Below the pieces are notes generated by a model, which did not search any database, was not told the origin of the DNA, and worked only from the letters and a program-made list of their open reading frames with translations. Shown here piece after piece: positions 13,969-57,299 of a stretch of DNA of 57,301 bases (the stretch's first letter is position 1; each line of letters begins with the position of its first letter). Origin of the DNA: a virus (Duplodnaviria; Caudoviricetes); IMG/VR virus record IMGVR_UViG_3300045738_002091, positions 1 to 57,301 of that record. One strand, 5' to 3'. Both the position numbers and the translations under genes were made by a program.

Positions 13969-16900
13969 ATGGCTTACAAACACGTTACAACAGGCTCAAT
14001 AGGAGAATCGATTATCGTTTCGGGAGAAAACCTTTCATCGGTTAATAAAGTCTTTTATTCACAACAGCCAGCTTATGCTGAGGGGGCTAGATTTTTTGGA
14101 ATTGATTTTGAATTTCTTGAATCAATTGTTCCCGATAGCGTTCAATGGGGACCGATTACTATTGTCGCAGATATCATAGCCAAATCCGGAACTTCTGATT
14201 TCGATTTTGTCCCCAATCCGGAAATTATAAGCCTAGACGATTATTCTCCATCGGCAAGCGTAACAATAGGAGTGTCTGGTCGGGCTTTGTCCGGTGTTAC
14301 TGGAGCCTACTTCGGCATTGAAGAAGATGGGACACATCGCGACAGTAATCTGACAGGGATAGTTTTATCAGGTTCAGTAACATCCATAGGAGAACTTCCG
14401 ATAATTGTTCCTACTGGTAATATTTCAGGAATGTTTAAAATAGTAGGACAATCGGGTCTCTATGATGTTTCTGATAAACTATCTGTATCAGCAAAAATAA
14501 CAGGAATTAATCCAACATCTGGGTACGAAGCAGACCAAGTTGTTTTGTCGGGTGTAAATTTTATTCCCGAAGCTCTATATCTGAGTGGAGCCGACTATTA
14601 CGAGGTCAGCTTTGGAAATGGAGTACGTGGGAGCTTCAAGATAGACTCAACAAACGTATTAACTGGACATGTTCCTTACCATGCTGATTCTGGCATGGTT
14701 AATTTGGTAAATTCAAATAACGGATTACATACTGGAGGAATAGATTTTAATGTCCTTATAAGTCCACCAACCGTTATATCTTCGGAACCTGAGTCAGGCG
14801 TTCCGGCGGGATATTCCCTTACCGACGCCTTTTCGATATTTGGATCTAATTTTGTAGATATAACAGGAGTCTATTCGTACCCAAGTTACGAAACTTCTTT
14901 TGATATAAATACAGCAAATAATTTAATTGATCCTTTCCAATTAAATTTTAATCTTCAAAATAGAAACCAACTCCAAATAAGCGCCCCTTCTGGAACTGGT
15001 TATCAGAATTTAGTAATACAAACCGAGCATGGAACTGGTCAAGGAGAAGAAGTCTTCTTTTTGAAATATGCTCCAGTTGTTTCTGGATTTGGGCCTAGAT
15101 CGTTAGTGGCAGGGGATGATATCTATATTACGGGAAGTGGATTTTTTACAGACCATTTACTAGTTTACTTTAGTGGGCTAGGTCCAGAGGAACAATTTAA
15201 AACAAAAATTTTCGTTGATATTCAAAGCGTCATAGGCGATGCGAGAGACACTTCGCCTCCAAATACGCAACAGGTCATGACAGTCACAAACCCCGGACTT
15301 TCATCCTCTACTTCTTATAAATTAATAGTCGAAAATGGAGTAGGAATAGGGGTATCTTCTTTATCAGCAAGTTTCTTAGGGCATCCAAAAATAGACACAA
15401 TTACTCCTACTTCTGGCAGACATGGAGATACAATAACACTTAGTGGCGAATCGCTAGGGGGTAATGTAGACAATCTAAAGCACGGCTTTGGAATAGACAT
15501 CCCTTATTTTTCTCCGATAGCTGGAGAAAGCGCAACTGGAATGACCTTTACGGTCCCCGACAAACAGACCTATCTAAGTAATGATTTATTCTATGGTAAA
15601 CGTTATAACCGCATAATTGTTGGTAGCTCAGCCGGGTCGAGCACTTCAGAAGAATATTTTTTAACTATCCCAGATGATATAGTTTGTAGTGGCTTTATCC
15701 CAGAAGTTGTATTTCCTGCTGACGAAATTATAATTTCAGGAGGAAATCTAGAGCTAGTCAAAAATGTAATATTTTCGGGAGGTCTAAAAGATGGCGTTCG
15801 GCAAAGATCAATCGTACGGGTTAAAAACGATGGTATGGTCACGGAATTCCATCCGCTCGGTTCAGACAGCCCCAAAACAGGAATTTCAATTAGAGTTCCC
15901 GGAGATGTATCAGACGGAAAAATTATTTTATCAGGAATCTACTCTTCTTGTCAGACTACACAAGAACTCATCATCGATAAAGACCCCGCTGACATTACTA
16001 TTATATCCGGAAGCGGAGTATTCGGAGACAAGATTAGAGTAAGCGGAGAAAATCTGCATGGACAAGCACTTTGGTTTCGTGGTTATAGAACTGGTACTAT
16101 TGACATTTCTAATCCGGTTGATGATCCGTTTGGTGAATTTATTGAACTGAATAAAGGTCCTCTTGAAGAGTTCATCCCGCCTTTATCAACTGAATACGTT
16201 ACTGACCCACACGGATTCGAAGTAGTTGACATAACAATTCCGGCAACGGTTCCAGAGTTTTCTGAGCTTTATGTTTCTCGCATAGGCATTTCATCCCCAT
16301 CTAGAAGGGATTTTAAAGCTCTAAGAACTGGGGTCTTTGTATTCCCTATTGTTAGTGGAATTTCCCATACAGAAATACACGTAGGAGATACTCTTTACGT
16401 TACGGGAGTAAATGCGATGGGCACTCTTGAAAATGCCGTAGGCATTTCTGGTACAGGTATTCCTAATCTATTCAGCGACATTTCAACTGACGCAAAGGAA
16501 ATTGAGTTTGTAAGTAAATATAATACAAAGATCACTCAACTCCCAGAACAAGATGGAGTACCTAGTTGGATGGACTTGGGTGGTTGGCATATACCAAATT
16601 GGCCAAAAGAATTATTTGATTCAGGCGATCCTCTCGCTCATAAATTCAATGCCAATATACGTAAACACGTACATGGATCTGGAGTAGTAGATACAACTCC
16701 CCCTACGGGAACTTATGTAATACCGATAGAAGTAGGAGACAATTTTGTCGGAACTGGTTTTATATTTTTATTCTTTGATGAGCATAAAGTTCATAAACAA
16801 GATGAAGGCGCTACGGCCACTTCTACTGACGTAGGCTATAAAACTCTTCATTGGGGGCACAATAAGATAGTAGAAAGAGGTCCAGATTCAGTTTCGTTTA

Positions 16901-19900
16901 AAGGAAAAACCTATCAAGGAAGGCGTTTCGACGATTTCGATTTTGATGGTGATGGAAAAAATGATACGTTTTTATGGAGTGGATATACCCATGAAACTAA
17001 CTATGAGAACAGGGGCGAAGAATACTCCCCTTTCTGGACAGGATTTAGTGGAAGTTATAACGATGAGCGTTTTGGAGACATTCTTTATACGAAGCATCCC
17101 CTTGTCATCCTGCCAGAGATAATTGAAATAACGGGAATAAGTCCCTCAGGTGGATTTCCGGGAGAATCACTCTCAATTTTTGGTTCTGGATTTAAGAATG
17201 CTACAGAAGTCTTTATTACTTTAGATGACGTTGGAGAGGATCATGATCTTCAAGTTAAAAAAGAGTTAACCGTAATCAATAAAGAATACGAATATATTAG
17301 TACTAAAATACCTTCTGTAGATTGGCAAACCAATCAAGAAAGAAAATCCGGATATATAACAGTCAAAACGAGATACAGCACTGCGAATTCCAGCGGATTG
17401 GAAAGTGGGCATGTTACAATCGAAAGACCGCCAGATTTTACTGGATTCTATCCAGATTACGGAATAGAGGGAGAAACAGTATTTTACATAGGAGGAACTA
17501 ACCTTAAATACATAAATAGTCTTTGGCTTAGGTCAAATACCGATTACGAAACAGTAGACGTAACTTATTGGGGGTTCGAAAACCGTGAAAATGACACTAT
17601 AGGAATATCAGGTCTTACTCCTCAGGGCATGTTGCCACTTCCTGATGATTTTACAATTTTCGGTTCAGCCACCGACTCGGCCTCAACCACTTCCGTAGGC
17701 CCCTATACAGTTGTAGTGGGAGATCTAACTGTTCATGGAAGTTTATACGTAGCCGAAAGTGCATACATCCAAGAAGACCTTGTAGTTTCTGGAAATACTT
17801 TTGCTTATCAAGATTTAGATGTATCCGGTGAATATTTGTTGGACGGGATTCCATTTGATGCGGGATCACTAATTAAAAGATTACCAAGAGAAAACAAAAT
17901 ACTTCATTTATCAGCCGAAAATAAATTCAGCTATATTGGAACAGGCGCTACTTGGAACGATATATCAAAATCCAAGAATGACGCTACTCTTATTAATTCT
18001 CCCACTTTTGGTGTTAACGAACTTGAGTTTAATGGGGTAGATCAATATGTAACCCTTCCCATGATAGAGCCGTTAAAGGTTCAGGATTTTACCATCGGTA
18101 TATTTTTTAAGCCAAACGAGGTTGGGGGAACAATCGCTACTCCAATTATTGCAGCGCCAAACCTAATACCAACTGAACTTGTTAGTTACGACATAAGTTA
18201 TGATTCAAATCGAAGATTTTTCTCGAATATAACATTTACAGACGAAACTTCTTCAACTGTATTTACTGATCAGGTAGATACGGGCTCTTATCACGTTGTC
18301 CATGCTACATGGGATGGAACAATTCATAAGATCTTCATAAGTGGCGAAGAGGCTAATTCTAATACTCCTGCGGCTGGAAAAATTATTTCTTATACTGACA
18401 CATCTTTAAATATATTAACAAATAGAACCGCTAGTCAATTCGTAGAAGGCGACCTTAGAGATATTCACATGTACTCTGGGGCTTTAAGTGGTAATGAAAT
18501 TTATGATATATATTCTAATTTAAATAATGTTTTTATATACGATAGAGACTTAGTTATTTCAGGTGGGAAAATCAAAATATATGAGCAAGATAATCCATCC
18601 AATTTTGGAATTTACGAAGATAATTTTATTAGCTTGAGTGGTGAGAATGCTGGAATAAGTATTAATGGCCACCTGTTAGATCCTCAATCGGAAAGATACA
18701 AATGGGAAAATGTAACCATTGGCGACAAGATTGACTTTGTAAGTTCACAGGGAACCGGAACATCAACAAGCATTACGGGAACAACCGATCATACTTTAGT
18801 AGGCTCGGTGCTCTTGGAAATGCAAGACGCCGGTCAATGGAGAAATGTAAAAGTTGTATTTGGAACATTGTTGTTCCCCGGCCTAAATAGCATCAAAGAC
18901 TTCGAAGTAAGGATCGGGTCAGATGTAATGGATTGGCCTTATAAATTTTCAGGGATAGATACTACAATTTCAACTGATTCAACAGATGTCACATTCATAG
19001 CTGAAGGTTTACCAGTCGGTTACATTGCAGAAAGCCCTCTCCTTTTAGACGTGTATGCTCGACCAACGACGTTTGAATGGCTTGGTGATCTTACCCAATA
19101 CAGAACCATTTACGGCGCGGGAGTCTATGGAACTGGAAGCGGCGTTGGAGTGTGGAATATCACCACAGAAGGAAACGTCGAGTTAGCCTTCCAACCGAAT
19201 ACGGGAGAAGGGAGCATAATCGGCACGGCAATTTATACGGGTGATGGAATTTCAGATTCGTTCCAGCTTGAATATACGGAAGGTGACACAGAACGAATAT
19301 TTGTTAGCTTAGACGGTATAGAATTAGTTCCTGAAATAGATTTTACAATTGTTGACCTGACAGGGGTTAAAATTAATAGCGCACCAAGCGCTGGAGAAGA
19401 AGTTTTTCTTAGGCAAATTTCTAATTCAATTGTCGTTCAACCGACGACTAACATTGTTAATTTCGGTGATATTTCTGGCTTAACCCTTTCTGATCTTTCA
19501 ACCGGAACTCAGATGCATTTTTCTGGTGAAATTTCTTCACTAGATGTCGAAAATTACAATATTTATGATAGTAACGTAAGTATTACTGGCGGTGGACAAA
19601 CGATCCATAACGAATTCTCAGGAATCACCGTAAATATTGACAACAATGCAACTGCAACAGCAGTTAATGTATTCACTGAACCGGGTGGCGACTCGACGAT
19701 GACATCGACGAACGCAAATGTAGTAGTCGCAAATGAAGGTGTCACTTCTTACATAACAAATTTGAATACTGCTTATATATTTGCAGAAACCGGAGCAGGA
19801 AAAGTCTTTATAACAGGGGGACAAAACCTTCTTACTGGTAACGTATATATAACTGGTGGCGAGAACATTGTAAGTGGGGGACTTTCTACAGTTTCTATTA

Positions 19901-20529
19901 ATGACGGTGAAAACACAATTTTCTTTACTGATGAATATAGCGAAGAAGCTACGGTTACTGGCGTTAACATAACTATATTTAGTTCTGGAACAATAGAGAA
20001 CATTTCAGGCGAAACTCTGACTATCCAAGATAGTCAACTTAGTAATTTTGGATATTCAGGAACTCAAATAACAATCCAAGGTGATTCCGTAACTTCTATG
20101 ACTGGAGAAGCATCCGGTTTAACGATCACTCAAAACGCTGGAACTGCAAATTATCATTTTTCTGGTGCTGCGGGAGGTAATACATATTTAAATACAATCA
20201 CAGCCAATAGCGCTTTTTCGGCCATAGGTTACGATAGCACTACATTTAATGTAACTGGAAACGATGCAACTATTAATTCTAGTGTCTGTAATATCGATAC
20301 AGAAAATATCACTACATACGAATCAACAAATTCGATAACTGGAACAACTATTGATGACATTTTTATATCTGGCATAGGAAATGTGACCTATATAGACGTA
20401 CAGGATGGAAACCTATCGTTTACGGGGGCTAGTGATTCGACAAATATCATAAGTGGTGCGAATACTGTAAATGCAACAGGAGTAAGCTATATTATTTATA
20501 ATTCTACGGTAACTATTGGTGGCGAATAA
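13969..20529 (+). CDS. Large virion surface/fibre protein: multiple IPT/TIG Ig-like repeats, a LamG domain and a C-terminal TG-rich repeat region (2186 aa)
   Basis: Repeated IPT/TIG starts (ITGINPTSGYEADQVVLSGVNF, IDTITPTSGRHGDTITLSGESL, ITGISPSGGFPGESLSIFGSGF). LamG-like LHLSAEN..SY.GTGATWNDIS...FNGVDQYV...YHVVHATWDG...IHMYS.ALS..EI. C-terminal xTG/xSG repeats. Confidence 0.75.
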   Translation: MAYKHVTTGSIGESIIVSGENLSSVNKVFYSQQPAYAEGARFFGIDFEFLESIVPDSVQWGPITIVADIIAKSGTSDFDFVPNPEIISLDDYSPSASVTIGVSGRALSGVTGAYFGIEEDGTHRDSNLTGIVLSGSVTSIGELPIIVPTGNISGMFKIVGQSGLYDVSDKLSVSAKITGINPTSGYEADQVVLSGVNFIPEALYLSGADYYEVSFGNGVRGSFKIDSTNVLTGHVPYHADSGMVNLVNSNNGLHTGGIDFNVLISPPTVISSEPESGVPAGYSLTDAFSIFGSNFVDITGVYSYPSYETSFDINTANNLIDPFQLNFNLQNRNQLQISAPSGTGYQNLVIQTEHGTGQGEEVFFLKYAPVVSGFGPRSLVAGDDIYITGSGFFTDHLLVYFSGLGPEEQFKTKIFVDIQSVIGDARDTSPPNTQQVMTVTNPGLSSSTSYKLIVENGVGIGVSSLSASFLGHPKIDTITPTSGRHGDTITLSGESLGGNVDNLKHGFGIDIPYFSPIAGESATGMTFTVPDKQTYLSNDLFYGKRYNRIIVGSSAGSSTSEEYFLTIPDDIVCSGFIPEVVFPADEIIISGGNLELVKNVIFSGGLKDGVRQRSIVRVKNDGMVTEFHPLGSDSPKTGISIRVPGDVSDGKIILSGIYSSCQTTQELIIDKDPADITIISGSGVFGDKIRVSGENLHGQALWFRGYRTGTIDISNPVDDPFGEFIELNKGPLEEFIPPLSTEYVTDPHGFEVVDITIPATVPEFSELYVSRIGISSPSRRDFKALRTGVFVFPIVSGISHTEIHVGDTLYVTGVNAMGTLENAVGISGTGIPNLFSDISTDAKEIEFVSKYNTKITQLPEQDGVPSWMDLGGWHIPNWPKELFDSGDPLAHKFNANIRKHVHGSGVVDTTPPTGTYVIPIEVGDNFVGTGFIFLFFDEHKVHKQDEGATATSTDVGYKTLHWGHNKIVERGPDSVSFKGKTYQGRRFDDFDFDGDGKNDTFLWSGYTHETNYENRGEEYSPFWTGFSGSYNDERFGDILYTKHPLVILPEIIEITGISPSGGFPGESLSIFGSGFKNATEVFITLDDVGEDHDLQVKKELTVINKEYEYISTKIPSVDWQTNQERKSGYITVKTRYSTANSSGLESGHVTIERPPDFTGFYPDYGIEGETVFYIGGTNLKYINSLWLRSNTDYETVDVTYWGFENRENDTIGISGLTPQGMLPLPDDFTIFGSATDSASTTSVGPYTVVVGDLTVHGSLYVAESAYIQEDLVVSGNTFAYQDLDVSGEYLLDGIPFDAGSLIKRLPRENKILHLSAENKFSYIGTGATWNDISKSKNDATLINSPTFGVNELEFNGVDQYVTLPMIEPLKVQDFTIGIFFKPNEVGGTIATPIIAAPNLIPTELVSYDISYDSNRRFFSNITFTDETSSTVFTDQVDTGSYHVVHATWDGTIHKIFISGEEANSNTPAAGKIISYTDTSLNILTNRTASQFVEGDLRDIHMYSGALSGNEIYDIYSNLNNVFIYDRDLVISGGKIKIYEQDNPSNFGIYEDNFISLSGENAGISINGHLLDPQSERYKWENVTIGDKIDFVSSQGTGTSTSITGTTDHTLVGSVLLEMQDAGQWRNVKVVFGTLLFPGLNSIKDFEVRIGSDVMDWPYKFSGIDTTISTDSTDVTFIAEGLPVGYIAESPLLLDVYARPTTFEWLGDLTQYRTIYGAGVYGTGSGVGVWNITTEGNVELAFQPNTGEGSIIGTAIYTGDGISDSFQLEYTEGDTERIFVSLDGIELVPEIDFTIVDLTGVKINSAPSAGEEVFLRQISNSIVVQPTTNIVNFGDISGLTLSDLSTGTQMHFSGEISSLDVENYNIYDSNVSITGGGQTIHNEFSGITVNIDNNATATAVNVFTEPGGDSTMTSTNANVVVANEGVTSYITNLNTAYIFAETGAGKVFITGGQNLLTGNVYITGGENIVSGGLSTVSINDGENTIFFTDEYSEEATVTGVNITIFSSGTIENISGETLTIQDSQLSNFGYSGTQITIQGDSVTSMTGEASGLTITQNAGTANYHFSGAAGGNTYLNTITANSAFSAIGYDSTTFNVTGNDATINSSVCNIDTENITTYESTNSITGTTIDDIFISGIGNVTYIDVQDGNLSFTGASDSTNIISGANTVNATGVSYIIYNSTVTIGGE

Positions 20530-23500
20530 ATGGATATTGAACTCATACAATTAAATTATTCGACTGGCTACATAACCGGGCAAAATGTGTCTGTTTATGA
20601 TAGTACCATTGTCGAGATGAATATCACTGGAATCAGCCCAATCGTCTCGATTACTAGTGGTACAACTTATTTTTCCGATTCCACAGCCTACGTAACGGGA
20701 AATATAAATGTAGAAGACGGAGGAATTCTCACTGGTGAGATAATAGGAAACGTTACCATTTCTGGAGGTACGTCTTATCTGACTACAGACAGTAGTGTTT
20801 CAATTTCCGGCGGAACGAATACCATTACGGGATCTTCTGTTTTCGCTACGGGAGAAAATTTAAATATTTCCTATGGCGTAACCACAGCCACAGGAAATAA
20901 CATTAACATTACATCTGGCACTAATACAATAAGCCTTCTTTCTGAAAGCGATGTATATTTAACAGGCGGGACAAATATATTAAATGTATATTCGGGATCA
21001 GCTACAATAGGTGGAGACGTTGCGAATGTATACAATCAAATAGTCGATTCCACCAATACAACCGTAACCGGATATAATGTTAATATTACGGGCGGGACTA
21101 CGAACATAACGGGAAACAATTTTACTATATCCGATGGAACCAACAATATTAATAGCGGTAGTGGCATTGTCATAAATCATGGGCTTAACACTATTACAGA
21201 TTCTTTGGACGTTGATGTGCTTGGAACAGTAGAGGCTCTCTTTGATAACGAAGTTGCAGAACTTACTTTAATCGGAGGAGATCCATTAATTTATAAGCCG
21301 GATGCTGTCAATATTTATAGCGGTGAAGAAATTACAATACATGAGGCAATCACTGTCAATCTGAATGATGAGTCTTCTCTTAATCTACTGGGAGACGATA
21401 GCAAAATTATAAATGCTTCTACGCTTAACTTTACTGGCGATAATATTGATATAAGTAACTCGGGTTCTGGTATTGTCAATATCACCAGTATTGGAGATGC
21501 AACTGTAAAGGATAGCTCAAATATATATCTTTCAGGAACTGTAAATGTAACAGGAACCGTTATCAACTCTGGCTTGATTACGGTTACTGGTTCTGATTTT
21601 TCAATTTATAGCGGAGAGAATACCATTGGTAGCTCGACAGTAACTGTTAATTCTGACGATATAACGGTTCGTAATTTGAGTAACACTTATATAAATGGAG
21701 AGCTTCTATCGTTTCAAGACATTGAGATTCTTAACGCTGGTCAGCTTCAAATGACTGGGGATGCTACCATTTCAAATCTTGCTGGATCAATTAATATAAC
21801 TGGAGGAATCAATGAAATCACTGGCTTGGGTGATGGAATAATAGCTTTGTATGATTCATCAGGGGCAATTGTTAATACTTCTTCTTCTGTGTCCGTAACA
21901 GGAGGTCAAACAACCATTACATCTTCCGATACTGTTTCCTTAGTCGGGGAATCAGGATCTAGTTCTACTATCCACAATACTGGAAATGTTGGAATAACCG
22001 GGGGAACAATAGCAATAACCAACACAGGGGATGCTTCCGTAACGGGTTCTACCATAAGCTCGTTTAATTTGGTTTCTGGAACCGCACACTTTGTCTTGCA
22101 AACGGGTTTCATAACAGGAGGAGTTAATTATCTTACGGGACAGAATTTTAGCATCACATCCGGAACTAGCCATTTCACAGGAGATTCGATTTATGTTACC
22201 GATGGAACAAGTCACATTACGGGCAACAATGTATATATAACTGGACAAACAATAAGCGTAACCGGAGTGGGTGAATCAGTATTCGCGACAGGGCAGGACA
22301 TAACTATTAACGACGGAACAGTAAGCGCAACTGGTAAAATTTTTAACGTCAGTGGAAGCACGGTCAATATAACTGGACAACTTAACATCACTGGAACTAA
22401 CAACACAATAAATGCTGATACTGCATATTTAACAGGACAGTCTCTTAACATTTATTCCGGTACTAGCTTCATTACGGGAGGAGCGATTAGTGTATCTGGA
22501 GGCGTTGTAAATGTAACAGGGGTTACCTCTGGAACCTTCAACCTGAATGACGGTTCTGTATCGACGGTAAATCTTAGCGGAAGTGGAAATGTCCTTACGG
22601 TAAACGAAGGTGCTGTAATAAAGCTCGATATTGATGATGCAGAAAATTTGAATTTGCCTGATATAGACAGCGTGACTGTCATAAGTGGGAATACATATAT
22701 ATCTGGTCAAGAATTTTCAGGAATATTTATTACGGGCGGGACAACCAGCATAACTGGATTCATAGGTAGTGGAGTAACAGTAAATTCCGGTACGGTTAAC
22801 ATAAATTCCACTGGAGAGTTTACCCTTAATTCTCCAATCGAAGTCAACGTACACAACAAAGAAAGCGGAATAGTAAACTTTACTGGAACAGCAAATGTAT
22901 ATAGCGGGGCTAATTCAATTACGTCAGTTTCAGGAGCGATTATTTCCATAACTGGAGGAACCAATAGTTGGAGTGGAGGAGTCGTAACCATAACAGGTGG
23001 AACAAATTATATTACCGGAGATGTTTCAATAACCGGAGATCAAATAACCATTACGGGAAGTAGTGGAACAAATCAATATATAACCGGAAATTCAATAACA
23101 ATCCAAAGCAGCACAAATACAAACATATCAGGGATCAGTGGTTCTACTTTCGATATTGATGAAAGCATTAATATTTTTAGCGATATACAAGATTCTACAT
23201 TTACAATCGAAGACGTTAGTACTCTAAATTTAACGGGCGGAAGCCAAACAATTAACGGAACAATATCGCAACAGAACCAATATATGTTTGGGGGTAACAT
23301 AACAGGGACTGTGATAGTTTCGGGTGGAACACATACATTTAATACTTACGGTGATACTGATATAAACTTATACAGCGGGGAGCATAGTGTAACAGGAGAT
23401 TCTATAAATATAACAGGTGGATTTGTTAATATCTTTAATATAGAAAGTGGTGCAACAAATACGTTTTCTGATAGCGATGTTGATATAAGCATAAATACAA

Positions 23501-26500
23501 CCAGTGGTGATTCTACACTCGTAGTTTCTGGAGACGTTAATTCCATATCCACAAGTGAGTTATCTGTTGATACGTTAACCGGAAATCTTATCTCATTTAC
23601 GGGTTCAAACGTGACAATACAGACTGGTGATGTAAACGACATAAGCATAACCGGATATAATCAAGTGGTTAATTTGTCTTTTGGTTCACAATCTATATCA
23701 AAGGACTCGATAAACGTTGGAGATATTAACACTTTCATTTTACAGAATTCTGGAATTAATACGATTACTAATTTAACGGGACGTTTTGTTTCGATTATAG
23801 ATGGAGCGATAGATTTAAATAATGCATATGGTGATATTTATTCTTACTCTGGAGATATAAACGTTTCGAATACTGGAAATACATTCAATACTACAGGTGG
23901 AAATATCTACCATAACATCACTGGAAACGTAGACACCATTACCGGAGGCATAAATACTATTTATTCCACTTCTACCTTAAATCTACAAACAAATGAATTA
24001 ACCGTTAGTGGTGGAACCAACTACATAACAGGAGATACAGTTACTGTTACGGGAGGAATCAATTATCTTACTGGGACTGATCCCGGAACATTCTCGCTTA
24101 TAAGCGGAAGCAACTATATAACCCTAAATGACAATAATCTGGAATTAACAGGCGGCACAAATATAGTAACAGTCAATAGTGGAAATGTAAGCATTACTGG
24201 AATTACTACAATTTCGGGTGGAGCAATATCCGTTTTGGGAGACGTAAGTGAAGTAAGTGATTCTACGATAGTCCACAATGTTTCTGGAACTAATGTTGAC
24301 ATAGAAAGTATGACCGGAAGCATTACTGCCGTAAATGCATCTATAACTGGAATCATACTTTCAGTAACTGGAAATACAATAAACGCAACAGGGCAGGTTA
24401 ATGCCACGGGAGAAACTATTAATGTCACTGGCACGGCTTACATTAATGGATCGGGATCGAATATTTATGTTACTGGAATTGCCAATACAACAGGCTCAAA
24501 CACCAATATACTTGGGTCGGGAAATACGATTTCAATATCGGATTCAGATATTGTAATTTCTGGGGGAACTGTTTCTGACGTTAGTACAACTGGGCTTATA
24601 ATTAATCAGGGAACAACATATGTCACTCCGCTTACAGATAGGAAAATAATTCATACAGCATTTTATTCGTCTACTGGAGAAAGAAATTATGTAATTTCAG
24701 GTGGCGTTCCAACTGGTGAAGAAAATCTTATTGTCTCAATTGGTGGTATCATTATGAATCCATTTGATGATTATGCCATAAGTGGGACCAGCGTTCATTT
24801 AATCGCTTCTCCAAGTTCTGGAGAAGAAGTCGAAATAAGAAATTTCTCCTCAGACCAAGCTGATATACCAATTTCGATAATTGATGCGGCAAGCGTAAGA
24901 TTCACGGGCGGTAGTCAAACCGTTACGATAATTGATCCAAATGTGGCATACCTCTATCCAGAAAGTGGGAATGTAAGCGTAACAGGTGGCTTGGTTAATT
25001 TATACAATAGTTCCTCTACTCAAGTTGGCGTGACAGGTACTGGAATTACCATCACTCAAGGAATTATAACTATTTCTGGACAAACATCTCCCCCCATAAG
25101 CAATTCGACAGTCAATTTCTATGGCGATACCACAAATGTTATTACGGGCGATAATGTTTCTATTTCGGGTGGTGATAATTATATTAGTGGCGCTGTAGGC
25201 ATAGCTACGGCTCTTGGTTATTATTCAAATGCTGAAGCTTCGGGCCTAATGGATTCCGATATAAATATATATAGCGGAATTACATACATAACTGGTGGAT
25301 ACTCACTTGCAACTGCTGATTCGTCCTCCACAGCAACGGCTATATCGAATGTTAATGTAAATATGAGCGGGGGAATCAATACGATAAACACTCCGAACGT
25401 ATCTATTACTGGCTACCTTTTAGAAAATGTAAATCTTACGGCAACAAGTGGTGACATAAACGTAACCGGGCACTCTATTACCATTACGGGTGACAATATA
25501 ATAAACGCTAGTGGAAATTACCTAACAGTACAAAGCGGAACAGCTAACATTGAAATTACGGGCGATAATCCTATCAGTATCACAGGAGGATTAACTAATC
25601 TTACCATTAGTGGAACGACTAACATTATTGGTGGAGAAAACATTTTTAATATAAACAGTGGCGCTATCTCAGAGGTTTATACTAGCGGAACCAACACTAT
25701 TAATTCAGGGACAAGTTATGTAACTGGGCAATCTATTACTATAAATTCTGGAATAACTTATTTCACTGGGCAAAACACAGGATTAAATATAAATATTAAT
25801 TCTGGAATTACATATTTTACCGGAACAAATAATGACATAGATGTAATAAGTGGAGTATTTTACTTAACTGGTAATAATTCTGGGGCTTCCGTAAATACGA
25901 CTGGAGGCCAAAATTACTTTAGTAATCTTGAGAATCTTAATTTAAGTGGTGGTGACAATAATTTTGAAGATGCTCTAATAGAAAATATTAATCTTAACAC
26001 AGATACGATAAATATATATAGCGGCACTACATATGCAACTGGAGAGAACATAAACATAACGGGTGGTTTGAACTACGTAACTGGAGCTCGTGACATATGG
26101 ATTTACGGTGGAGAAAATATAGTTACCGGAGAAGAAGGAAAAACTTTTATAACTGGAGGAATCAATGAGATTTCGTTTGAAGGTTTTGGCTTTGCCTTTA
26201 TTAGATACGGAACCAATTATATAACAGGAGGCATTAATGAAATCGAAGCCCTTGGCCCCATTAGTATAACAAGCGGCACGAGTTATTTCACTGGGATTCA
26301 TACAGGACAAATCAATATAAACACTGGGATTAGTTATATCACTGTCACCGGAGATGTAATAGTCACTGGGGGGGTAACTCACATTACGAATACAGGATCA
26401 ATTTCCATCGATCCAGAAACTGCAAATATCTATAGCGGAACCAACTCAATTACGGGAACGCAAACAATCTATATAACTGATGGTATCAATATTTGGAGCG

Positions 26501-31854: not shown

Positions 31855-32582
31855 GCCTTAGTCATTTTTTCCTTAAGGGCCTTGATCTTCGGGATATATT
31901 CAAAAATCTTTATATTTGAAACGTCATCTAATGAACTAAATTCATCTGCTCCTTTGACCCCATCAGAAACAAGCCTTTTTTTTACGTCATCAAAACCAAC
32001 GTTTGTAATGTCCATTAGTTTCTGAAGGATTACCCTTGGATTTGTGAGGTTTCCGCTTTCCCCATCTTGTTGGGGAGGGACTATTTTGGAATTTCCTATT
32101 TCGTCTTTGCCCAAAATATTAACCTTTAGGAAGTTTCTGACGCAGCGCACAAATGCTCTATTTTCAGCCGTTGCTCCAAGATAATACCGCGTAAGAGAAT
32201 TGGTGTTCTCTATGGAAGCGTCTCCTATAGCAGAGAAGGTTACTTCTTTTCCTTCTGTCTCAAGATTCGGAATCCATTTTATTTTGCAAACAGAAACTAC
32301 ATAACCCTGAGAGGGGCAAGAGACCTCGTGTGTAAGCTCAGTATAACCTCGAACTTGAGCAAGTTCTTTATACCCATGAAGAAGAACGAGTAAATCTCTA
32401 TCTTCTAAATCATCAATACTTTTGCTTGCGTTGCCCCTGTCTTTTGGGACTAAAAAATCAGGGTTGATCATTTTTCTCCAATCAATAAACCCTTCATCGG
32501 TAAGTTTGTAGTCTAACCCTTTAATTAAACCGTCATTATTGCGTTCGATCTTTTTGATTTTAGGCGTGGCTTTTCTTGGCAT
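31851..32582 (-). CDS. Probable single-strand annealing protein (Rad52/Sak/ERF-like fold)
   Basis: LLHGYKELA..RG...VVSVCKI.W...FSAIGDAS..N...YL.ATAENRAFVRCVRNFL.VNI...DEI resembles the SSAP core helix motif (A.AE.RA..RA.R). Confidence 0.55.
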   Translation of the reverse strand: MPRKATPKIKKIERNNDGLIKGLDYKLTDEGFIDWRKMINPDFLVPKDRGNASKSIDDLEDRDLLVLLHGYKELAQVRGYTELTHEVSCPSQGYVVSVCKIKWIPNLETEGKEVTFSAIGDASIENTNSLTRYYLGATAENRAFVRCVRNFLKVNILGKDEIGNSKIVPPQQDGESGNLTNPRVILQKLMDITNVGFDDVKKRLVSDGVKGADEFSSLDDVSNIKIFEYIPKIKALKEKMTKA

Positions 32583-33762: not shown

Positions 33763-33766
33763 ATTT

Positions 33767-36246: not shown

Positions 36247-36253
36247 ATGGAGA

Positions 36254-36283
36254 ACCATACAGGGAAATCCCCGAAGGTGTCAA
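36254..36283 (-). promoter_or_regulatory. Sigma70-like promoter TTGACA-N18-TATGGT, 7 nt before ATG 36246
   Basis: The minus strand reads TTGACAccttcggggatttccctgTATGGTtctccatATG. The TGA stop of dnaE lies within the -35 box. Confidence 0.65.
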
Positions 36284-39543: not shown

Positions 39544-39549
39544 CTTAAC

Positions 39550-45096: not shown

Positions 45097-47187
45097 ATGA
45101 CACCGCCGCTACCAGATCAACAAAGTTGGGAGCTAATCCATAAAACTGATAAATTGGTTATTGGGGCTACTTTTCCCTATTACGAAACATCTGAAGATTA
45201 CCATTATTTTGTTGAAGATCTTTTGGCATACCTAGTCGAAAATACTCCTTACGATACGAGTGTTTATACCGAAGCCCCATTCTATATAAAAATTACCATA
45301 GAAGAAGGAGTTATTATAAAGGGGCCAATTGTTATAAAAGGATTTAACTCAATGTCCACCTTCGAGATTATCAACCACGGGGAAATAAAGGGCACAGGCG
45401 GCAAGGGGGGCACGGCTTCTACTCCGTATCATCTGAGAGGTTATGCTCAGGATCTAATAAACAAGCCTCGCTTATCTCAAAAGTATTGGCATGAATTAGA
45501 TGGCCAAGATGGAGGTGATTGCATCCATACCTATCATAACCTTGTTATAACCAACTATGGAAAAATTCATGCTGGAGGCGGTGGTGGTGCTGGCGGAACG
45601 CCTGTCTACGGTTTCTATGCTTCGAACAAACAAGCGGATAATACAAGAACCTATCTTCCATTAATGGAAGCTCCCTTGGGTAATTTCGGTAATATGAATG
45701 CAAGATTTTGCGATGCCTCACCCACTTGGAATTGGCCATCTAATTCATATTATGGACCTTGGCGTTGGGACTACCACAATAAATGGCAATACGAATGGGG
45801 TGGAAGATGTAAACCGGGTTATCATTGTCCATCCAATCCCGATATTTGGAATCGTGGACTCATAGCCAAAACTCAGCCTATGTTAACGATTTGGATTTGG
45901 CCAAATACTTGTTCCTATAAAAATTCCTATGGTATTACTATTTGGTGCACTGGTCCGGTAGGGCTCGGATTCCCTTATAAGGGATTTACCGTCGTTTCTG
46001 ATGGTTGGGAACGTCGTGACTGGACTGGTTCGACTGGTTCTGTATCGAAGGGCGACCCAGACCTTGCCCTCAATCAAAAAATTTCATTCCAAATCATCCA
46101 CGGGGGAAATGGTGGCGGCGGGGCAGGATTTGATAGCTCTGCCGGATCATATGACAGACGATGGCTTGATAACGGTTATGGGGGAGGGTCTTATTCTGTA
46201 AGTAGGACCGTAATTGGAGGAGGGAAATATTTTGACGTACGCATATCCGAGCTTTACAAATTCGGATTGGCATTAGGGAAGTTTTTCGCCCTTGAGAATA
46301 TAGATCTAAGTTGGCTGAGTAAAGAAATAGATCATCCCACATGGGGAAAGATTGATTTCGATGCCAAAATAGTAAGTGGCCCAACCCTAAATACCAGCGA
46401 TACCCTTTCCATTACTAAAGAAGGGGGACTCACAAATTTTCCAACTTCGTTTGACATAACGATGCTTTGGGGATCAAGAACACTCCGTAGAAATATAAAT
46501 TGGAACACCGCTCATTTTTCCCCTCCCCCTTTCGAATGCCTTAGCATAGAAGATACACCAGTTACCCATACCGTCCCAATTTATTATGATGACTACGACA
46601 TGTCTCCACTTTTCGGTTTGTCTTCGTTATCGTATGGCTATAGAGAAATACCAGCAGCAGGTGGACGGTCTTGGCCAAAAGCTAATCCATACGGAGCAAG
46701 CGATCCATACGGAGGCTATAACGGTGAAGACTTTGTGGGAGCACATCGCGCTAACCAATATAGCTTAGCCTCTGCCGGAATCGCAGACATCGGAGGGGCT
46801 GGTTCTACTAGACAATATTCTGAAGTAGATTGGGGAGAGGGCCAAAGTAGGGTAGACGACCCAGTATGGCGACGTGATCCTAAAAAATTATGGTCCAAAG
46901 GTGGGGGTTCTGATGCAATGTCGTTTTTGGTTCATGGAATTTATAATCACGACTACTTAAAAGACTTTAAGGGTGATGGTGGCGCTGGCGGCAATATAGG
47001 CGAAGACGGAAAAAATACTGAAGTTGCTGCTTATTCAGGAACCTCGAAACTAGGGCAACCATATACGCTACCAGCCATTACCATAAAAGGGGGTAAAGGA
47101 GGACACGCAATAAAAAAGAAGGACGGGGTAACTGTTAGCATCAAAGAAGAAGGGGATATAAAAGGAAGGATTGAAGCTGGTCTTTAG
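45097..47187 (+). CDS. Glycine-rich adhesin-like protein (T-even gp38-type polyglycine motifs)
   Basis: IINHGEIKGTGGKGG, DGQDGGDCI, ITNYGKIHAGGGGGAGG, GGNGGGGAG, GDGGAGGNIGEDG, GGKGGHAI...GDIKG, with aromatic-rich inserts between the glycine motifs. Confidence 0.65.
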   Translation: MTPPLPDQQSWELIHKTDKLVIGATFPYYETSEDYHYFVEDLLAYLVENTPYDTSVYTEAPFYIKITIEEGVIIKGPIVIKGFNSMSTFEIINHGEIKGTGGKGGTASTPYHLRGYAQDLINKPRLSQKYWHELDGQDGGDCIHTYHNLVITNYGKIHAGGGGGAGGTPVYGFYASNKQADNTRTYLPLMEAPLGNFGNMNARFCDASPTWNWPSNSYYGPWRWDYHNKWQYEWGGRCKPGYHCPSNPDIWNRGLIAKTQPMLTIWIWPNTCSYKNSYGITIWCTGPVGLGFPYKGFTVVSDGWERRDWTGSTGSVSKGDPDLALNQKISFQIIHGGNGGGGAGFDSSAGSYDRRWLDNGYGGGSYSVSRTVIGGGKYFDVRISELYKFGLALGKFFALENIDLSWLSKEIDHPTWGKIDFDAKIVSGPTLNTSDTLSITKEGGLTNFPTSFDITMLWGSRTLRRNINWNTAHFSPPPFECLSIEDTPVTHTVPIYYDDYDMSPLFGLSSLSYGYREIPAAGGRSWPKANPYGASDPYGGYNGEDFVGAHRANQYSLASAGIADIGGAGSTRQYSEVDWGEGQSRVDDPVWRRDPKKLWSKGGGSDAMSFLVHGIYNHDYLKDFKGDGGAGGNIGEDGKNTEVAAYSGTSKLGQPYTLPAITIKGGKGGHAIKKKDGVTVSIKEEGDIKGRIEAGL

Positions 47188-52444: not shown

Positions 52445-52464
52445 AGTCTCCTTCGAGGAAGGGA

Positions 52465-52493
52465 AACATAACCCGACGAAAAGATCAAGTCAA
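52465..52493 (-). promoter_or_regulatory. Sigma70-like promoter TTGACT-N17-TATGTT upstream of dnaB, followed by SD AAGGAG
   Basis: The minus strand reads TTGACTtgatcttttcgtcgggtTATGTTtcccttcctcgAAGGAGactATG. Confidence 0.7.
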
Positions 52494-52494
52494 G

Positions 52495-52749: not shown

Positions 52750-52765
52750 AATAATATTTACACTA

Positions 52766-54324: not shown

Positions 54325-54327
54325 GAT

Positions 54328-54747
54328 TTAGTATGTTTTAAAATTAAAGAATTTTGGTTTTTTATTTCTAGGTTCGACTTCCCTGTCTTCTCCTATTTTT
54401 TCTTCTTCAATTTCTTGCATATTTTTTTTGTTTATGTCTAGGGCAATGTATTTGAACCTCTTAAAGAGTATCCTCTTTCCTTCTTCAGTCAAGAAATAGG
54501 ACAAACAGTAGGGCTTATACCAAAGATTTACCATCACGAAAAAATAGAATCCGTGCTTATTAATAAGGGTTTTGGCCAGCTTGAACTGTTTTGGGTAATT
54601 TATTTCTGCATCTTTGCGTAGAAACTTATGGAGCATGAAGAGGTATTCATCTCTCTTGCTTAATGTCCCATCTGACCATCTTTTCAACAAGTTCTCCAAA
54701 TGATACCTTGGGTTTCCACCCCAATTCTTCTCTTGCTTTGGTTGCAT
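54328..54747 (-). CDS. Hypothetical basic protein (true start uncertain, probably near 54640-54690)
   Basis: The ORF fills the gap between gmd and recA. The computed start overlaps gmd by about 100 bp, so it is probably too long. Confidence 0.5.
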   Translation of the reverse strand: MQPKQEKNWGGNPRYHLENLLKRWSDGTLSKRDEYLFMLHKFLRKDAEINYPKQFKLAKTLINKHGFYFFVMVNLWYKPYCLSYFLTEEGKRILFKRFKYIALDINKKNMQEIEEEKIGEDREVEPRNKKPKFFNFKTY

Positions 54748-55717
54748 CTCCGATTAAAATGTCTATTTCTGCCGGACGATAAAAATCCGGATTGACCTTA
54801 ACGAAAGTATACTTATGGGGGCCTCCATTGTCGATATATTTTTCATCCACTCCTTCCCCCTCCCAATGTCCTTTAAAACCAGCGGTAGAAAAGGCTTTTT
54901 CCACAAATTCTCTGATAGAATGAGCTTCACCGCTTGCAAGAAGATAGTCTTTTGGGTTCTCCTGATTCAACATAAGCCAAACCCCCTCTATGAAATCTTC
55001 GCTATCGCTCCAGTCCCTTTTTGAATCAAGATTGCCAAGCTCAATTGAATCAAAAGTTGCAGCATCTCCATGACGACCCCTCCAGTTATCTACGCATTTA
55101 ATTTTATTGAAGATTCTGGCTACCCCTTTGGTAATTTTTCTTGTCACGAATTCTTCGCCACGCTTGGTCCCTTCGTGGTTGAAAAGAACTCCGTGAACCG
55201 CATAAAGATCATAAGAGTCTCTATATACTTTAACTAGATGGCCAGCCGCACATTTTGAAGCTCCATATGGACTGCGAGGCTTCAGGGGGTGAGAAAGATC
55301 TTGGGGGCAATAATCGACATCTCCAAATTCTTCACTACTTCCGGCACTATAGAATCTACAATTAGGCTGGAATCTTCTAATCGCTTCCAAGCACCTTATT
55401 ACTCCTGCGGCATTGGTATCAAAAACCTGCATTGGCATATCCCAGCTACATCCTACAAAAGAATTAGCCGCAAAGTTAATAAAATAATCAGGTTGTATTT
55501 CTTGCACTAATTTTGCGAGGCTAAACTCATCAGTAAGGTCTCCATAAACTAATTGAAAATTAGAATGATCCAAAAACTTTTTACAATTAACAAAATTAGG
55601 ATTAGAAAGTCTACGGACCATGCCGAATACCCTATTATCTTGATTTTTTAAAAGGTACTCACACATATTAGAACCGTCTTGGCCCAATACCCCTGTAACT
55701 AAAATCTTTTTGTTCAT
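54647..55717 (-). CDS. gmd: GDP-mannose 4,6-dehydratase
   Basis: Start ATG 55717 (ATGA overlap). LVTGVLGQDGS, GDLTD, NFAANSFV..SW, FYSAGSSEEFG, PRSPYGASK, LFNHEG..RGEEFVTRKIT, LGNLDSKRDW, FYRPAEID.LIGD. Confidence 0.96.
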   Translation of the reverse strand: MNKKILVTGVLGQDGSNMCEYLLKNQDNRVFGMVRRLSNPNFVNCKKFLDHSNFQLVYGDLTDEFSLAKLVQEIQPDYFINFAANSFVGCSWDMPMQVFDTNAAGVIRCLEAIRRFQPNCRFYSAGSSEEFGDVDYCPQDLSHPLKPRSPYGASKCAAGHLVKVYRDSYDLYAVHGVLFNHEGTKRGEEFVTRKITKGVARIFNKIKCVDNWRGRHGDAATFDSIELGNLDSKRDWSDSEDFIEGVWLMLNQENPKDYLLASGEAHSIREFVEKAFSTAGFKGHWEGEGVDEKYIDNGGPHKYTFVKVNPDFYRPAEIDILIGDATKAREELGWKPKVSFGELVEKMVRWDIKQER

Positions 55718-56688
55718 TTTTTCCTTAGAGAGTTTTCTTCTTTTGCTTTGACATACCATTCATAGGTAGATTCTAAGCCTTCTTCCAAATTAATTTTTGG
55801 TGACCAACCTAAATCTATAAGCCTTTTGGAAGACATTAGTTTTCTTAACGTTCCATCCGGTTTTGAAAGATCAAAGGCGATGCCTCCTTCGTATCCTATC
55901 ACCTTTTTCATTGTAAGAACAAGTTCTTCAATCGAGCAATCTGTACCAGAGCCTATATTAAGGTGAGAAATTTTTTGGTCATAAACATCTTTAACATTAA
56001 CCTTTTCAAGAATAAATATACAGGCGTCTGCAAGATCATCTACGTGCATGAATTCCCTTCTTGCTTTTCCTGTCCCCCATACCTTAACGATTGGAAGGTT
56101 CTCTGTCTTTGCTTCGTCGAATTTTCTTATCAAAGCGGGGAAAACATGAGAGTTTTCAGGATGAAAATTATCATATGGCCCATACTGATTACAGGGCATG
56201 ACAGAAAGATATTCCCTACCAAATTGCCTGTGATAACTTTCACACATTTTTATACCAGCAATTTTGGCAATTGAATAAGGCTCATTTGTGTACTCTAACG
56301 GAGAGGTTAAAAGATATTCCTCTTTGATAGGTTGCTCCGCAAATTTAGGATAAATACAAGAACTACCCAAAAACAAAAACTTATTCACATTCCACTTGTG
56401 GGCTGTATGAATTAAGTTGTTTTGAATTTGAAGATTACCGTAAATGAAATCTGCTCTGTATTCGTTATTCGCATGAATGCCTCCAACTTTTGCGGCACAA
56501 TCGATAACAGCTTCTATTCCTTCGTTATCCCAAAAAAAATCTTCTACTTCACCTTGTCTTGTCAGGTCGAGGTAACAAGAGTCGGCAGTTATGATATTTT
56601 GATAGCCACATTCTTTTAGTTTTTCGTGGATAGCCCTTCCAACCATTCCGTTATGTCCGGCAATATAAATTTTGGAATCTTTGTTCAT
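55714..56688 (-). CDS. fcl: GDP-L-fucose synthase (GDP-4-keto-6-deoxymannose epimerase/reductase)
   Basis: IYIAGHNGMVGRAI, AAKVGGIHAN, FLGSSCIYPK, LE.TNEPYSIAKIAG, MPCNQYGP.DNF...SHV.PAL, VWGTG..RREFMHVDD, KPDGT.RK. Confidence 0.96.
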   Translation of the reverse strand: MNKDSKIYIAGHNGMVGRAIHEKLKECGYQNIITADSCYLDLTRQGEVEDFFWDNEGIEAVIDCAAKVGGIHANNEYRADFIYGNLQIQNNLIHTAHKWNVNKFLFLGSSCIYPKFAEQPIKEEYLLTSPLEYTNEPYSIAKIAGIKMCESYHRQFGREYLSVMPCNQYGPYDNFHPENSHVFPALIRKFDEAKTENLPIVKVWGTGKARREFMHVDDLADACIFILEKVNVKDVYDQKISHLNIGSGTDCSIEELVLTMKKVIGYEGGIAFDLSKPDGTLRKLMSSKRLIDLGWSPKINLEEGLESTYEWYVKAKEENSLRKK

Positions 56689-57299
56689 TTTTTTTGAGTG
56701 TCAATCCAGTCTTCTAATTTCACGGTAGGTTCATATCCAAGATATTTTTGGATTTTGGATATATCTGCTAATGTTGTTGCAGCTTCTCCGGGCCTTTCTG
56801 GTACGTGAATTATTTCGTCTCCAATTAGTTTAGCAAGCTCAAGAACACTATGATTTTTCCCTGTCCCGACATTAAAAATTTCACCAAATATTTTTCTGTT
56901 ATCGCTTTCAGCAGCACGTATGTTTGCTTGAACTACGTCAGATACATGGGTGAAATCTCTACGCTGTAATCCACCACCCACAATTGTCATTAGTTCTCCA
57001 TCCGCAACTTGACGTTGGAAGATCCCTACTACGGGTGCGTATTGACCTCTTACTGGTTGCCTTTCTCCGTAGACATTAAAATATCTAAAGATTACGGTTC
57101 TAAGATCCCATAATATCTGATACATCTTACATAAGTCTTCCGCAGCTACCTTGGTAACAGAGTACGGGTTTAGGCAATCTCTCGGCATGTCTTCCTTTAA
57201 GGGTGGCTCATTCTTGAGTCCATATGCGGAAGACGTTGATGAGTACATGAACCTTTTTACCTTTGTTTTCCTAGACGCTTGAAGAACATTACAAGTACC
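56685..57299 (-). CDS. NAD-dependent nucleotide-sugar epimerase/dehydratase (5'-truncated)
   Basis: The frame is open to the window edge (GTCNVLQASRKTKVKRFMYSSTSSAYG). YSVTK (YxxxK), RYFNVYGERQ, G.Q.RDFTHVSDVV.AN, FNVGTG. Confidence 0.92.
   Translation of the reverse strand, partial: GTCNVLQASRKTKVKRFMYSSTSSAYGLKNEPPLKEDMPRDCLNPYSVTKVAAEDLCKMYQILWDLRTVIFRYFNVYGERQPVRGQYAPVVGIFQRQVADGELMTIVGGGLQRRDFTHVSDVVQANIRAAESDNRKIFGEIFNVGTGKNHSVLELAKLIGDEIIHVPERPGEAATTLADISKIQKYLGYEPTVKLEDWIDTQKK

Follow-up and report, generated by a model that had tools for sequence, protein, structure and literature searches.

The question raised by this locus is what a tailed phage glycosylates with enzymes of its own. 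The analysed DNA, called the window below, is the entire 57,301-base IMG/VR record IMGVR_UViG_3300045738_002091 (Duplodnaviria; Caudoviricetes). It encodes two glycosyltransferases (GTs) at 32584-35689, sugar-nucleotide enzymes at 54647-57299 and a giant fibre-like protein. An earlier note had proposed that these parts form a virion glycosylation system, in which Ser-Gly and Thr-Gly dipeptides, (S/T)G, or N-x-(S/T) triplets, NxS/T, of the structural proteins serve as acceptors. Its observations were partly confirmed and its interpretation partly supported: the list of parts was right and proved richer than described (a GT4 enzyme, a predicted split GT9 enzyme and a GDP-6-deoxyhexose pathway), while the acceptor motif did not hold. 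A glycan built by the phage and carried by a virion or other phage protein is the explanation ranked first, tentatively and unproven. The GT genes lie in a block of four minus-strand genes (189, 640, 392 and 243 aa), tightly packed with gaps of 1-4 bases or a 1-base overlap:

35689..36258, minus strand: 189-aa conserved protein, between the DnaE and GT640 genes; its stop codon overlaps the GT640 start by one base.
33767..35689, minus strand: GT640, as the 640-aa protein is named here, with a GT4-type GT-B domain (residues ~1-440; Pfam, PHROG and Foldseek), a helical DUF4214-like linker (residues ~450-520; profile matches in relatives and the model) and a four-stranded half-Rossmann lobe (residues ~530-615, strands ~533-612, with the invariant D544; model and alignment).
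32584..33762, minus strand: 392-aa protein with a predicted GT9 (heptosyltransferase-type) nucleotide-sugar-binding lobe at residues 1-184 and a second, alpha/beta domain of unassigned kind at residues ~199-380.
31851..32582, minus strand: 243-aa conserved protein, last of the block, convergent with the 3' end of the giant open reading frame (ORF).

The two GT genes had been placed by the earlier note one gene away from the end of the giant ORF, and this was borne out, one of them being GT4-like and the other GT9-like. GT640 scored 26.2 bits (E 6.5e-6) against Pfam Glycos_transf_1, for which the cut-off is 26.4, and matched phrog_2170 'glycosyltransferase' with an E-value of 1.1e-14. Among 39 members of its family, PF00534 was matched (E<=0.01) by 37 and DUF4214 by 18; weak GT41 cross-matches appeared in only three relatives (best E 1.7e-4). 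The eight-sequence GT640 profile found nothing among PDB sequences at E<=1. A Foldseek search of the PDB with the predicted structure (pLDDT 83) returned 3oy2 (E 6.9e-18), MshA, PimB', BshA and HepE, with TMt 0.72-0.76 over ~450 columns. The N-terminal part of GT640 is thus predicted from its model to be a GT4-type enzyme with a two-Rossmann GT-B fold. The hallmark of GT4 enzymes is an E-x7-E motif; the GT640 family has invariant E332 and E337 in 'GGQEIPxQEAK', a spacing of 4, not 7, as read from sequence columns only. A 4-Cys ribbon (C271/C274/C289/C292), invariant in the family alignment, lies inside the GT4 domain. The segment preceding the small lobe is helical in the model.

The window copy of the 392-aa protein gave no match to Pfam Glyco_transf_9 (PF01075) at E<=0.01, either directly or in the six-frame search. 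The family was matched by 58 of the 73 members of the 392-aa protein family (best E 6.8e-16), and orthologues exceeded the PF01075 cut-off in four of five records. The family profile matched RfaF (1psw) in the PDB with an E-value of 6.6e-7, and its consensus 'GvDSfsvHlA' aligned with the DSGxxHxA-type motif 'NDSGLMHVA' of RfaF; in the window copy this motif reads D106-N-H-I-S-Q-L-A113. The predicted structure had a pLDDT of 96. For residues 1-184, the VIA Z values were 17.4 for RfaF 1psw (rmsd 3.1, 168 aligned), 16.4 for WaaC 2h1f, 16.2 for 3tov and 14.5 for TibC, and the best non-GT9 fold reached 11.2. This part of the protein is accordingly modelled as a GT9 donor-binding C-lobe.

The two lobes of the GT9 fold are not found on one polypeptide, as the 392-aa protein starts with the C-lobe and the candidate N-lobe is on GT640. 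Docking of GT640 residues 525-640 with the 392-aa protein scored 0.78 versus 0.00 for the best control, passing a mark that 58 of 80 solved complexes attained, as against 2 of 110 mismatched pairs; at least 72% of contacts agreed between runs, and the partner pLDDT was at least 67. The gene boundary between GT640 and the 392-aa protein is kept in all six aligned relatives, and members of the 392-aa family measure ~376-408 aa, fragments aside (150 listed representatives). A search among proteins of 687-2000 aa yielded no fused form; the evidence from this search is weak. The half-Rossmann lobe of GT640 is read from the models as the N-lobe (acceptor side) of the split GT9. The pair is likewise read as a predicted GT9-type GT-B enzyme divided over two genes, with the acceptor-side lobe fused to a second transferase. 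In the proposed mechanism, the small lobe of GT640 would dock with the GT9 lobe of the 392-aa protein and rebuild one GT9-like active cleft, to which GT640 would contribute D544 and the 392-aa protein the D106...A113 'DSGxxHxA'-type motif. The pair would then hold two transferase activities.

All relatives were retrieved via the GT pair, whose presence in them therefore holds by construction. Beside DnaE, the block of 189-aa, GT640, 392-aa and 243-aa genes was syntenic in the loci fetched with GT640, the 243-aa gene in 80 loci. The number of GT640 relatives exceeds 3441, and the 392-aa family makes up 1186 clusters at 50% identity. Between the window and the related record G006, identity was 63% for DnaE, 61% for GT640, 52% for DnaB, 50% for RecA and 49% for the primase. 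In a very large lineage of uncultured phages, the GT pair thus forms a core block, located between DnaE and the fibre genes. Since GT640 is conserved near the level of DnaE, a conserved acceptor specified by the phage fits better than a host glycan. The GC content of phages with GT640 spreads over 31-38%, which suggests different hosts. The 189-aa protein had no Pfam, PHROG, NCBIfam or PDB match, and its family profile returned nothing meaningful from the PDB; its acidic C-terminal tail is the only lead toward a possible role like that of a single-stranded DNA-binding protein (SSB). The 243-aa protein had no family or PDB match, its profile likewise gave nothing meaningful against the PDB, and the Atlas provided leads only, to Sak/Rad52-type annealing proteins (0.88-0.92). 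A search for PHROGs with homologues of the two proteins yielded nothing usable. No description of the split GT4-GT9 pair or of the lineage was found in the literature searched, the coverage of which was limited; phage glycan genes are already known, and the predicted split GT9 fused to a GT4 did not appear in that literature.

The sugar-nucleotide genes lie at the other end of the window, which stops within the sugar island:

54647..55759, minus strand: Gmd, GDP-mannose 4,6-dehydratase (Pfam GDP_Man_Dehyd, 355 bits, full length).
55714..56688, minus strand: Fcl, GDP-L-fucose synthase (NF047922, 452.9 bits with a cut-off of 500, profile positions 2-306 of 308).
56685..57299, minus strand: GalE-like NDP-sugar epimerase/dehydratase of the short-chain dehydrogenase/reductase (SDR) type, C-terminal 204 aa, cut by the window end.

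The assignment of this region to gmd, fcl and an epimerase was upheld, Gmd and Fcl being full-length matches and the third gene a partial GalE-like SDR. All 11 PDB matches of Gmd at E<=1e-40 are GDP-mannose 4,6-dehydratases; against TIGR01472 it scored 337.7 bits, with a cut-off of 415. The full-length SDR orthologue in G001, the closest relative, has 300 aa and is 78% identical, and its best PDB match is the UDP-glucose 4-epimerase 4zrm (E 4e-53). By their family matches, Gmd and Fcl of the window are predicted to make GDP-L-fucose. A related GDP-sugar substrate, such as GDP-heptose, is possible, because both enzymes score under the NCBIfam equivalog cut-offs. No heptose pathway genes were found in the window.

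The gmd gene was present in 12 of 13 related records, and the single miss was a fragment. Its surroundings differed between records. In G006, the neighbours were two SDRs, a UDPG/GDP-Man dehydrogenase, HtrL_YibB and a GT4-like gene. The island of G005 contained a GT10-like fucosyltransferase, methyltransferases, HAD-NTP_transferase, RmlD-like, C-methyltransferase, DegT and GT2-like genes. Just past the point where the window ends, G001 had two GHMP kinases, whose best PDB matches were both heptose-phosphate kinases, a cytidylyltransferase-like gene and a GT-like gene. The Fcl orthologue of G001 was 75% identical, and other enzymes replaced Fcl in G005 and G006. The gmd region therefore forms the inner end of a nucleotide-sugar/GT island that lies upstream of recA and is hypervariable: gmd is constant in it, and the tailoring enzymes and GTs vary. 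The island of G007 also encodes a 378-aa SET-domain protein (protein lysine methyltransferase family) upstream of gmd (L119:6753-7889).

These data bear on whether the GT pair and the island belong together at all. They may be mutually unrelated and unrelated to the virion, with the GT pair acting on a non-structural phage or host protein or on a small molecule and gmd/fcl being an independent add-on. The two modules are 19 kb apart in different operons, the islands of relatives bring their own GTs, and GT640 keeps 61% identity to its counterpart in G006, where other enzymes take the place of Fcl, so GT640 is probably independent of GDP-fucose. Both modules nevertheless co-occur throughout the lineage (gmd in 12 of 13 records, the GT pair in all by construction), and we consider their complete independence distinctly unlikely.

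The fibre and tail proteins to which the acceptor motif had been attributed are as follows:

20530..31854, plus strand: giant fibre-like protein, 3774 aa, composed along its length of degenerate 7-residue repeats, [N/Y][I/V][T/S]G-x-x-x, apart from a short non-repeat C-terminus.
13969..20529, plus strand: fibre protein, 2186 aa, with LamG and T7-tail-fibre-N domains.
12870..13967, plus strand: protein of 365 aa with an IPT/TIG domain, in which the SG excess is marginal.
1717..6999, minus strand: gpJ-like tail tip protein (Phage-tail_3, E 5.5e-19), the internal negative control for the motif claim.
39550..47187, plus strand: two fibre genes, 1848 aa (three LamG domains; 39550-45096) and 696 aa (45097-47187).

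Motif counts per ORF were compared with 300 shuffles of each protein. The 3774-aa ORF contained 345 (S/T)G dipeptides versus 145 expected (z 20.8, observed/expected ratio (O/E) 2.4), and the 2186-aa ORF 99 versus 47 (z 8.7, O/E 2.1), in the latter with no clear period. The excess that had been described for the structural proteins at large is thus confined to these two giant fibre ORFs. It was marginal at 12031-12870 (6 versus 2.6, z 2.4) and in the IPT protein at 12870-13967 (11 versus 5.8, z 2.3), for which an excess had also been claimed. It did not extend to gpJ (23 observed, 23 expected, O/E 1.0, z 0), and the two other fibres were depleted, with O/E values of 0.70 (39550-45096) and 0.44 (45097-47187). 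Replication proteins, which the earlier note had described as lacking the bias, indeed showed no significant excess and, pooled over relatives, gave a baseline O/E of 1.20 (1239/1031). The strings quoted in favour of the bias (VSGISGNF, VTGFSG and others) occur once or twice each, and the supposed 'tail-tube-like paralogs' had no family matches and no paralogy by blastp. The claimed excess of NxS/T was absent, with composition-level counts in every ORF (119 versus 112 expected in the giant, z 0.8). NxT was accordingly rejected as an acceptor: it was not enriched, and no oligosaccharyltransferase (PglB/STT3) or N-glycosyltransferase (GT41) family was present among the window ORFs.

In the giant, the (S/T)G sites have the context [N/Y][I/V][T/S]G and are spread evenly along the protein; 94 of 344 gaps between them equal 7 residues, versus 4.7 expected, with secondary peaks at 6 and 14. 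The 7-residue repeat also accounts for 61 of the 119 sequons, in the form NxTG/NxSG. The (S/T)G dipeptides comprise 228 TG and 117 SG. In a comparison set of 12 T4 and T5 proteins (seven fibre/tail-tip, tape-measure, tube, capsid and two non-structural proteins), the O/E ranged from 0.76 to 1.84, all values being 0.76-1.3 except that of T5 pb4 (1.84). As these proteins lack the bias, it is specific to the repeat architecture of the giant and not general to fibres. The (S/T)G excess is the turn of the 7-residue fibre repeat. The C-terminal ~250 aa of the 2186-aa fibre resemble the same repeat (29-31% identical by blastp). The giant had no Pfam or PDB match, only chance-level ones, including an ice-recrystallisation-inhibition beta-solenoid at E 0.49, and a piece of it gave nothing usable in the Atlas. 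Its last ~120 residues (31500-31854) form a non-repeat, W/Y-rich end with two Cys, which may be a receptor-binding or assembly domain.

The same repeat could still be what the enzymes modify. In this version, a subset of the virion explanation, the split GT9, tethered to a GT4 and a 4-Cys ribbon, would O-glycosylate the [T/S]G hydroxyls along giant beta-solenoid-type fibres in the cytoplasm, giving a dense TibC/AAH-like O-glycan to which the island would add strain-specific outer sugars. A single gene separates the giant repeat protein from the GT pair, and the T4/T5 fibres are without the bias. Across three homologues, S or T was kept at (S/T)G sites in 82-86% of aligned positions versus 48-58% for T elsewhere, and replacement by V/I was rare at these sites. 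Such retention is predicted equally by a structural turn and by an acceptor site, and from the fixed place of the motif in the 7-residue repeat, conservation is expected without glycosylation. The sites of TibC include NSGG, and the residue modified is Ser, not Thr (PMC4358343), whereas TG exceeds SG in the giant. Neither gpJ nor the two other fibres of the window have the excess.

The neighbourhood of the block in relatives bears on this version from both sides. Downstream of the block, 39 of 69 loci had an (S/T)G-enriched ORF (O/E>=2, p<1e-4) within 8 kb, and in 30 of 69 there was none and the tail-tip genes come directly; at least 3 kb of downstream sequence was needed, and 11 loci were skipped. 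Five related records that carry the GT pair and gmd alike differed in their enriched ORFs:

G006, 100% complete: 3 of 74 ORFs enriched in (S/T)G, one probably a shadow frame.
G009, 87% complete: 1 of 69.
G010, 56% complete: 0 of 52.
G011, 53% complete: 0 of 42.
G012, 49% complete: 0 of 37.

The three half-complete relatives thus retain the GT pair and gmd without an (S/T)G-rich ORF among those examined. For these reasons, the proposal that (S/T)G or NxT is the acceptor, which lacks support from co-variation, fell, in the case of NxT for want of both enrichment and a matching enzyme, and we regard glycosylation at (S/T)G as unlikely.

A phage-built glycan does not require that motif. In the explanation ranked first, module A (32584-35689) would be a two-protein glycosyltransferase that belongs to the core of the lineage and is tightly embedded in the DnaE operon. 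The phage would build its own glycan, with module A providing the conserved core and module B, the sugar island, the variable decoration. Attachment would take place in the cytoplasm, on a product made by the phage, most probably a virion (fibre or tail) protein, and not necessarily at (S/T)G.

Several observations weigh against a virion target. No sequence features were found that mark any virion protein as modified, and a search for S/T-rich tails, in 20-aa segments with at least 60% S/T, gave one short stretch, in the giant. Terminase, portal, capsid and tube genes are all missing from the window, and the absence of the capsid and tube genes counts here. No fucosyltransferase families (GT10, GT11, GT23 or similar) were detected among the window ORFs. 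Both modules share minus-strand operons with genes for replication and recombination (DnaE, RecA and DnaB), not with late structural genes, and their separation is a weak point of the virion interpretation. The positive docking result could be due to resemblance to solved GT9 enzymes made of a single chain, not to binding. In the structural comparison, RfaF and WaaC outscored TibC (Z 17.4 and 16.4 versus 14.5). The canonical acceptor of GT9 enzymes is the inner core of lipopolysaccharide (LPS), and gmd, fcl and the genes for UDP-glucose dehydrogenase and HtrL are typical of LPS and capsule synthesis. Sets of gmd, fcl and GT genes in cyanophages were interpreted as host cell-wall auxiliary metabolic genes (AMGs) (PMC9602691).

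Much of this evidence favours remodelling of the host envelope, in which the GT pair and the island would act on LPS, capsule or wall glycans of the host. Possible purposes are a block to superinfection or a changed surface of the infected cell, the usual assumption for 'LPS genes' of marine phages. The GT9 fold is nearest to the LPS heptosyltransferases RfaF and WaaC; the island genes (HtrL_YibB, UDPG dehydrogenase, gmd/fcl and the heptose-kinase-like genes) are typical of LPS and capsule; the gene order implies expression with early/replication genes; the hypervariable island resembles O-antigen diversity; and the cyanophage sets have been read in this way (PMC9602691). On the other side, GT640 is conserved like a DNA polymerase across phages of 31-38% GC, which is unusual for enzymes that track host glycans, and no Wzx/Wzy/WaaL-type, Gtr-type, flippase or lipid-carrier GT genes were seen among the window ORFs. 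The acceptor-binding N-lobe of the GT9 is, in the model, reduced to four strands, whereas LPS heptosyltransferases have a full acceptor lobe. The sequence evidence does not separate a virion target from a host-envelope target, which is a further weak point of the virion interpretation. Envelope remodelling is a serious rival, which we hold possible and somewhat doubtful; the phage-built glycan on a virion or phage protein keeps the first place.

A position inside the replication operon and DnaE-like conservation would also suit enzymes that hypermodify phage DNA with a variable glycan and let it escape restriction, and a variable sugar island would suit such an arms race. Phage GT-B enzymes that glycosylate DNA were reportedly described by Pyle in 2024, a work cited in PMC12619734. 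The folds found here are GT4 and GT9, not of the T4 AGT/BGT type. A ThyA-type hydroxymethylase (PF00303) was detected in none of five records, which include G006 (100% complete) and G007 (91%), and TET/JBP (PF12851) also in none of the five; therefore, no known acceptor base can be made, and DNA as the target is very unlikely.

The window had a CheckV completeness of 37%, and related records of 37-54 kb were 25-35% complete. G006 has 171,916 bases, is rated 100% complete by CheckV, and has a GC content of 31% compared with ~38% in the window. From its length and completeness and from the completeness of the shorter records, the full genome size of the lineage is ~155-172 kb. Although labelled linear, G006 (L093-L101) repeats its first ~357 bases as its last ~357, and it is probably a complete genome with terminal repeats. 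The window comprises the following gene sets:

11158 to 1717, minus strand: tail-tip set of lambda type (gpM, gpL, two gpK-like JAB/NlpC proteins and gpJ), by profile matches.
11087 to 31854, plus strand: fibre genes.
Minus strand: replication set (DnaE, exonuclease, PHP, PD-(D/E)XK nuclease, primase, DnaB and RecA), by profile matches.

The gpK-like tail paralogs at 6992-7924 and 8594-9358 (both minus strand) are 35-39% identical, flank a 255-aa gene, and have a JAB domain and an NlpC/P60 trace each. Inside the replication module, an 8-kb fibre cassette (39163-47187, plus strand) with the 126-aa, 1848-aa and 696-aa genes lies in the opposite orientation. L004, L007 and G006 lack it, their exonuclease gene adjoining DnaE, and shorter or different fibre genes occupy the spot in L001-L003; for these reasons, it looks like a swap site for receptor-binding proteins. 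A small gene for a DUF559 (Vsr-like endonuclease) protein is found between RecA and DnaB (52766-53191, minus strand) and is 53-86% identical in relatives. The replication module of G006 has two insertions that are not in the window, a 419-aa 2OG-Fe(II) oxygenase (L095:1566-2825), which is not of the TET/JBP type, and a 1020-aa ORF (G006:38467-41529).

No cultured relative was found in searches of the phage collection. There, the sole tblastn match of GT640 was weak and partial, in Synechococcus phage S-CBS4, and neither the 392-aa protein nor a 1000-aa segment of the giant gave a match. DnaE matches were at most 27.5% identical among the 15 records listed, and every matching record was below 60%. 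Contigs carrying GT640 relatives (L102-L114) were assigned to bins of metagenome-assembled genomes, 6 of 13 from Bacteroidota and the rest scattered, including one labelled Promethearchaeota (archaeal). The many phyla of these bins probably reflect phage contigs mis-binned by composition and are weak evidence on the host.

Three features set the locus apart. The first is a heptosyltransferase-family GT-B enzyme that is predicted to be divided naturally between two genes and whose acceptor lobe would form one chain with a second GT. The second is a GT pair about as conserved as DNA polymerase and core in a very large uncultured lineage; GTs and gmd/fcl of aquatic phages are usually classed as host-surface AMGs. 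The third is the co-occurrence of this conserved pair with a hypervariable island where only gmd is constant. Taken together, they suggest that the phage owns a glycan whose core is conserved and whose periphery varies. With the virion as the target, glycosylated virions would be a trait of abundant aquatic phages as well as of actinobacteriophages, and if the (S/T)G version were true, fibres of a globally abundant uncultured lineage would bear a 'phage O-antigen'. If the host envelope is the target, the pair would represent an unusually conserved takeover function.

Among known systems, TibC/AAH with TibA/AIDA-I offers several parallels. The GT9 enzyme TibC adds heptose to Ser residues in NSGG-type turns of a beta-helix; its N-lobe is reduced to four strands, and it grips its substrate with a 4-Cys finger (PMC4358343). 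The phage pair shares with it the predicted GT9 donor lobe (VIA Z 14.5), a four-stranded acceptor-side lobe, a 4-Cys metal knuckle and a gene near a long repeat protein, with S-G-G-type turns in that system and [T/S]G turns, one gene away, in the window. These parallels may point to a protein acceptor, as a resemblance only. The BAHT (TibC/AAH) family is defined by an N-terminal beta-barrel and a 4-Cys iron-finger inserted in the GT9 C-lobe (PMC4358343). The phage pair lacks the barrel, its four Cys are in the GT4 domain and not in the GT9 lobe, and no conserved Cys was found among the invariant columns of the 392-aa protein. Moreover, the phage enzyme is predicted to consist of two chains, one of which also contains a GT4; its closer structural neighbours are LPS heptosyltransferases; and some relatives retain the pair with no repeat protein of this kind in the vicinity.

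The cyanophage AMG clusters are similar in that an aquatic phage carries gmd, fcl, epimerases and several GTs, as in S-SCSM1 with its gmd, fcl and GTs (PMC9602691). There, they are accessory genes of T4-like myoviruses, whereas here the GT pair is a conserved core block with a new, predicted split architecture. RfaF and WaaC are the best structural and sequence matches for residues 1-184 of the 392-aa protein, with an aligned DSGxxHxA-type motif. The phage system differs from them in a GT-B fold predicted to be divided over two genes, a truncated acceptor lobe, an extra ~180-aa domain and its place among core phage genes. Mycobacteriophage GTs reportedly attach O-glycans to the C-terminal tails of capsid and tail-tube subunits (Freeman and colleagues, 2023, a study also cited in PMC12619734). 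The likeness is that GTs encoded by the phage are proposed to decorate virion proteins with O-glycans; in contrast, no S/T-rich tails were found in the window, its GTs are in a replication operon, and the system is known from genes alone. The last comparison is with eukaryotic giant viruses, a different setting. The top Foldseek match of GT640, 3oy2, is a GT of chlorovirus NY-2A, only marginally ahead of bacterial GT4 enzymes. Chloroviruses and mimiviruses have their own Gmd and fucose synthase and cytoplasmic GTs, and their virion proteins bear a conserved core glycan with variable decoration.

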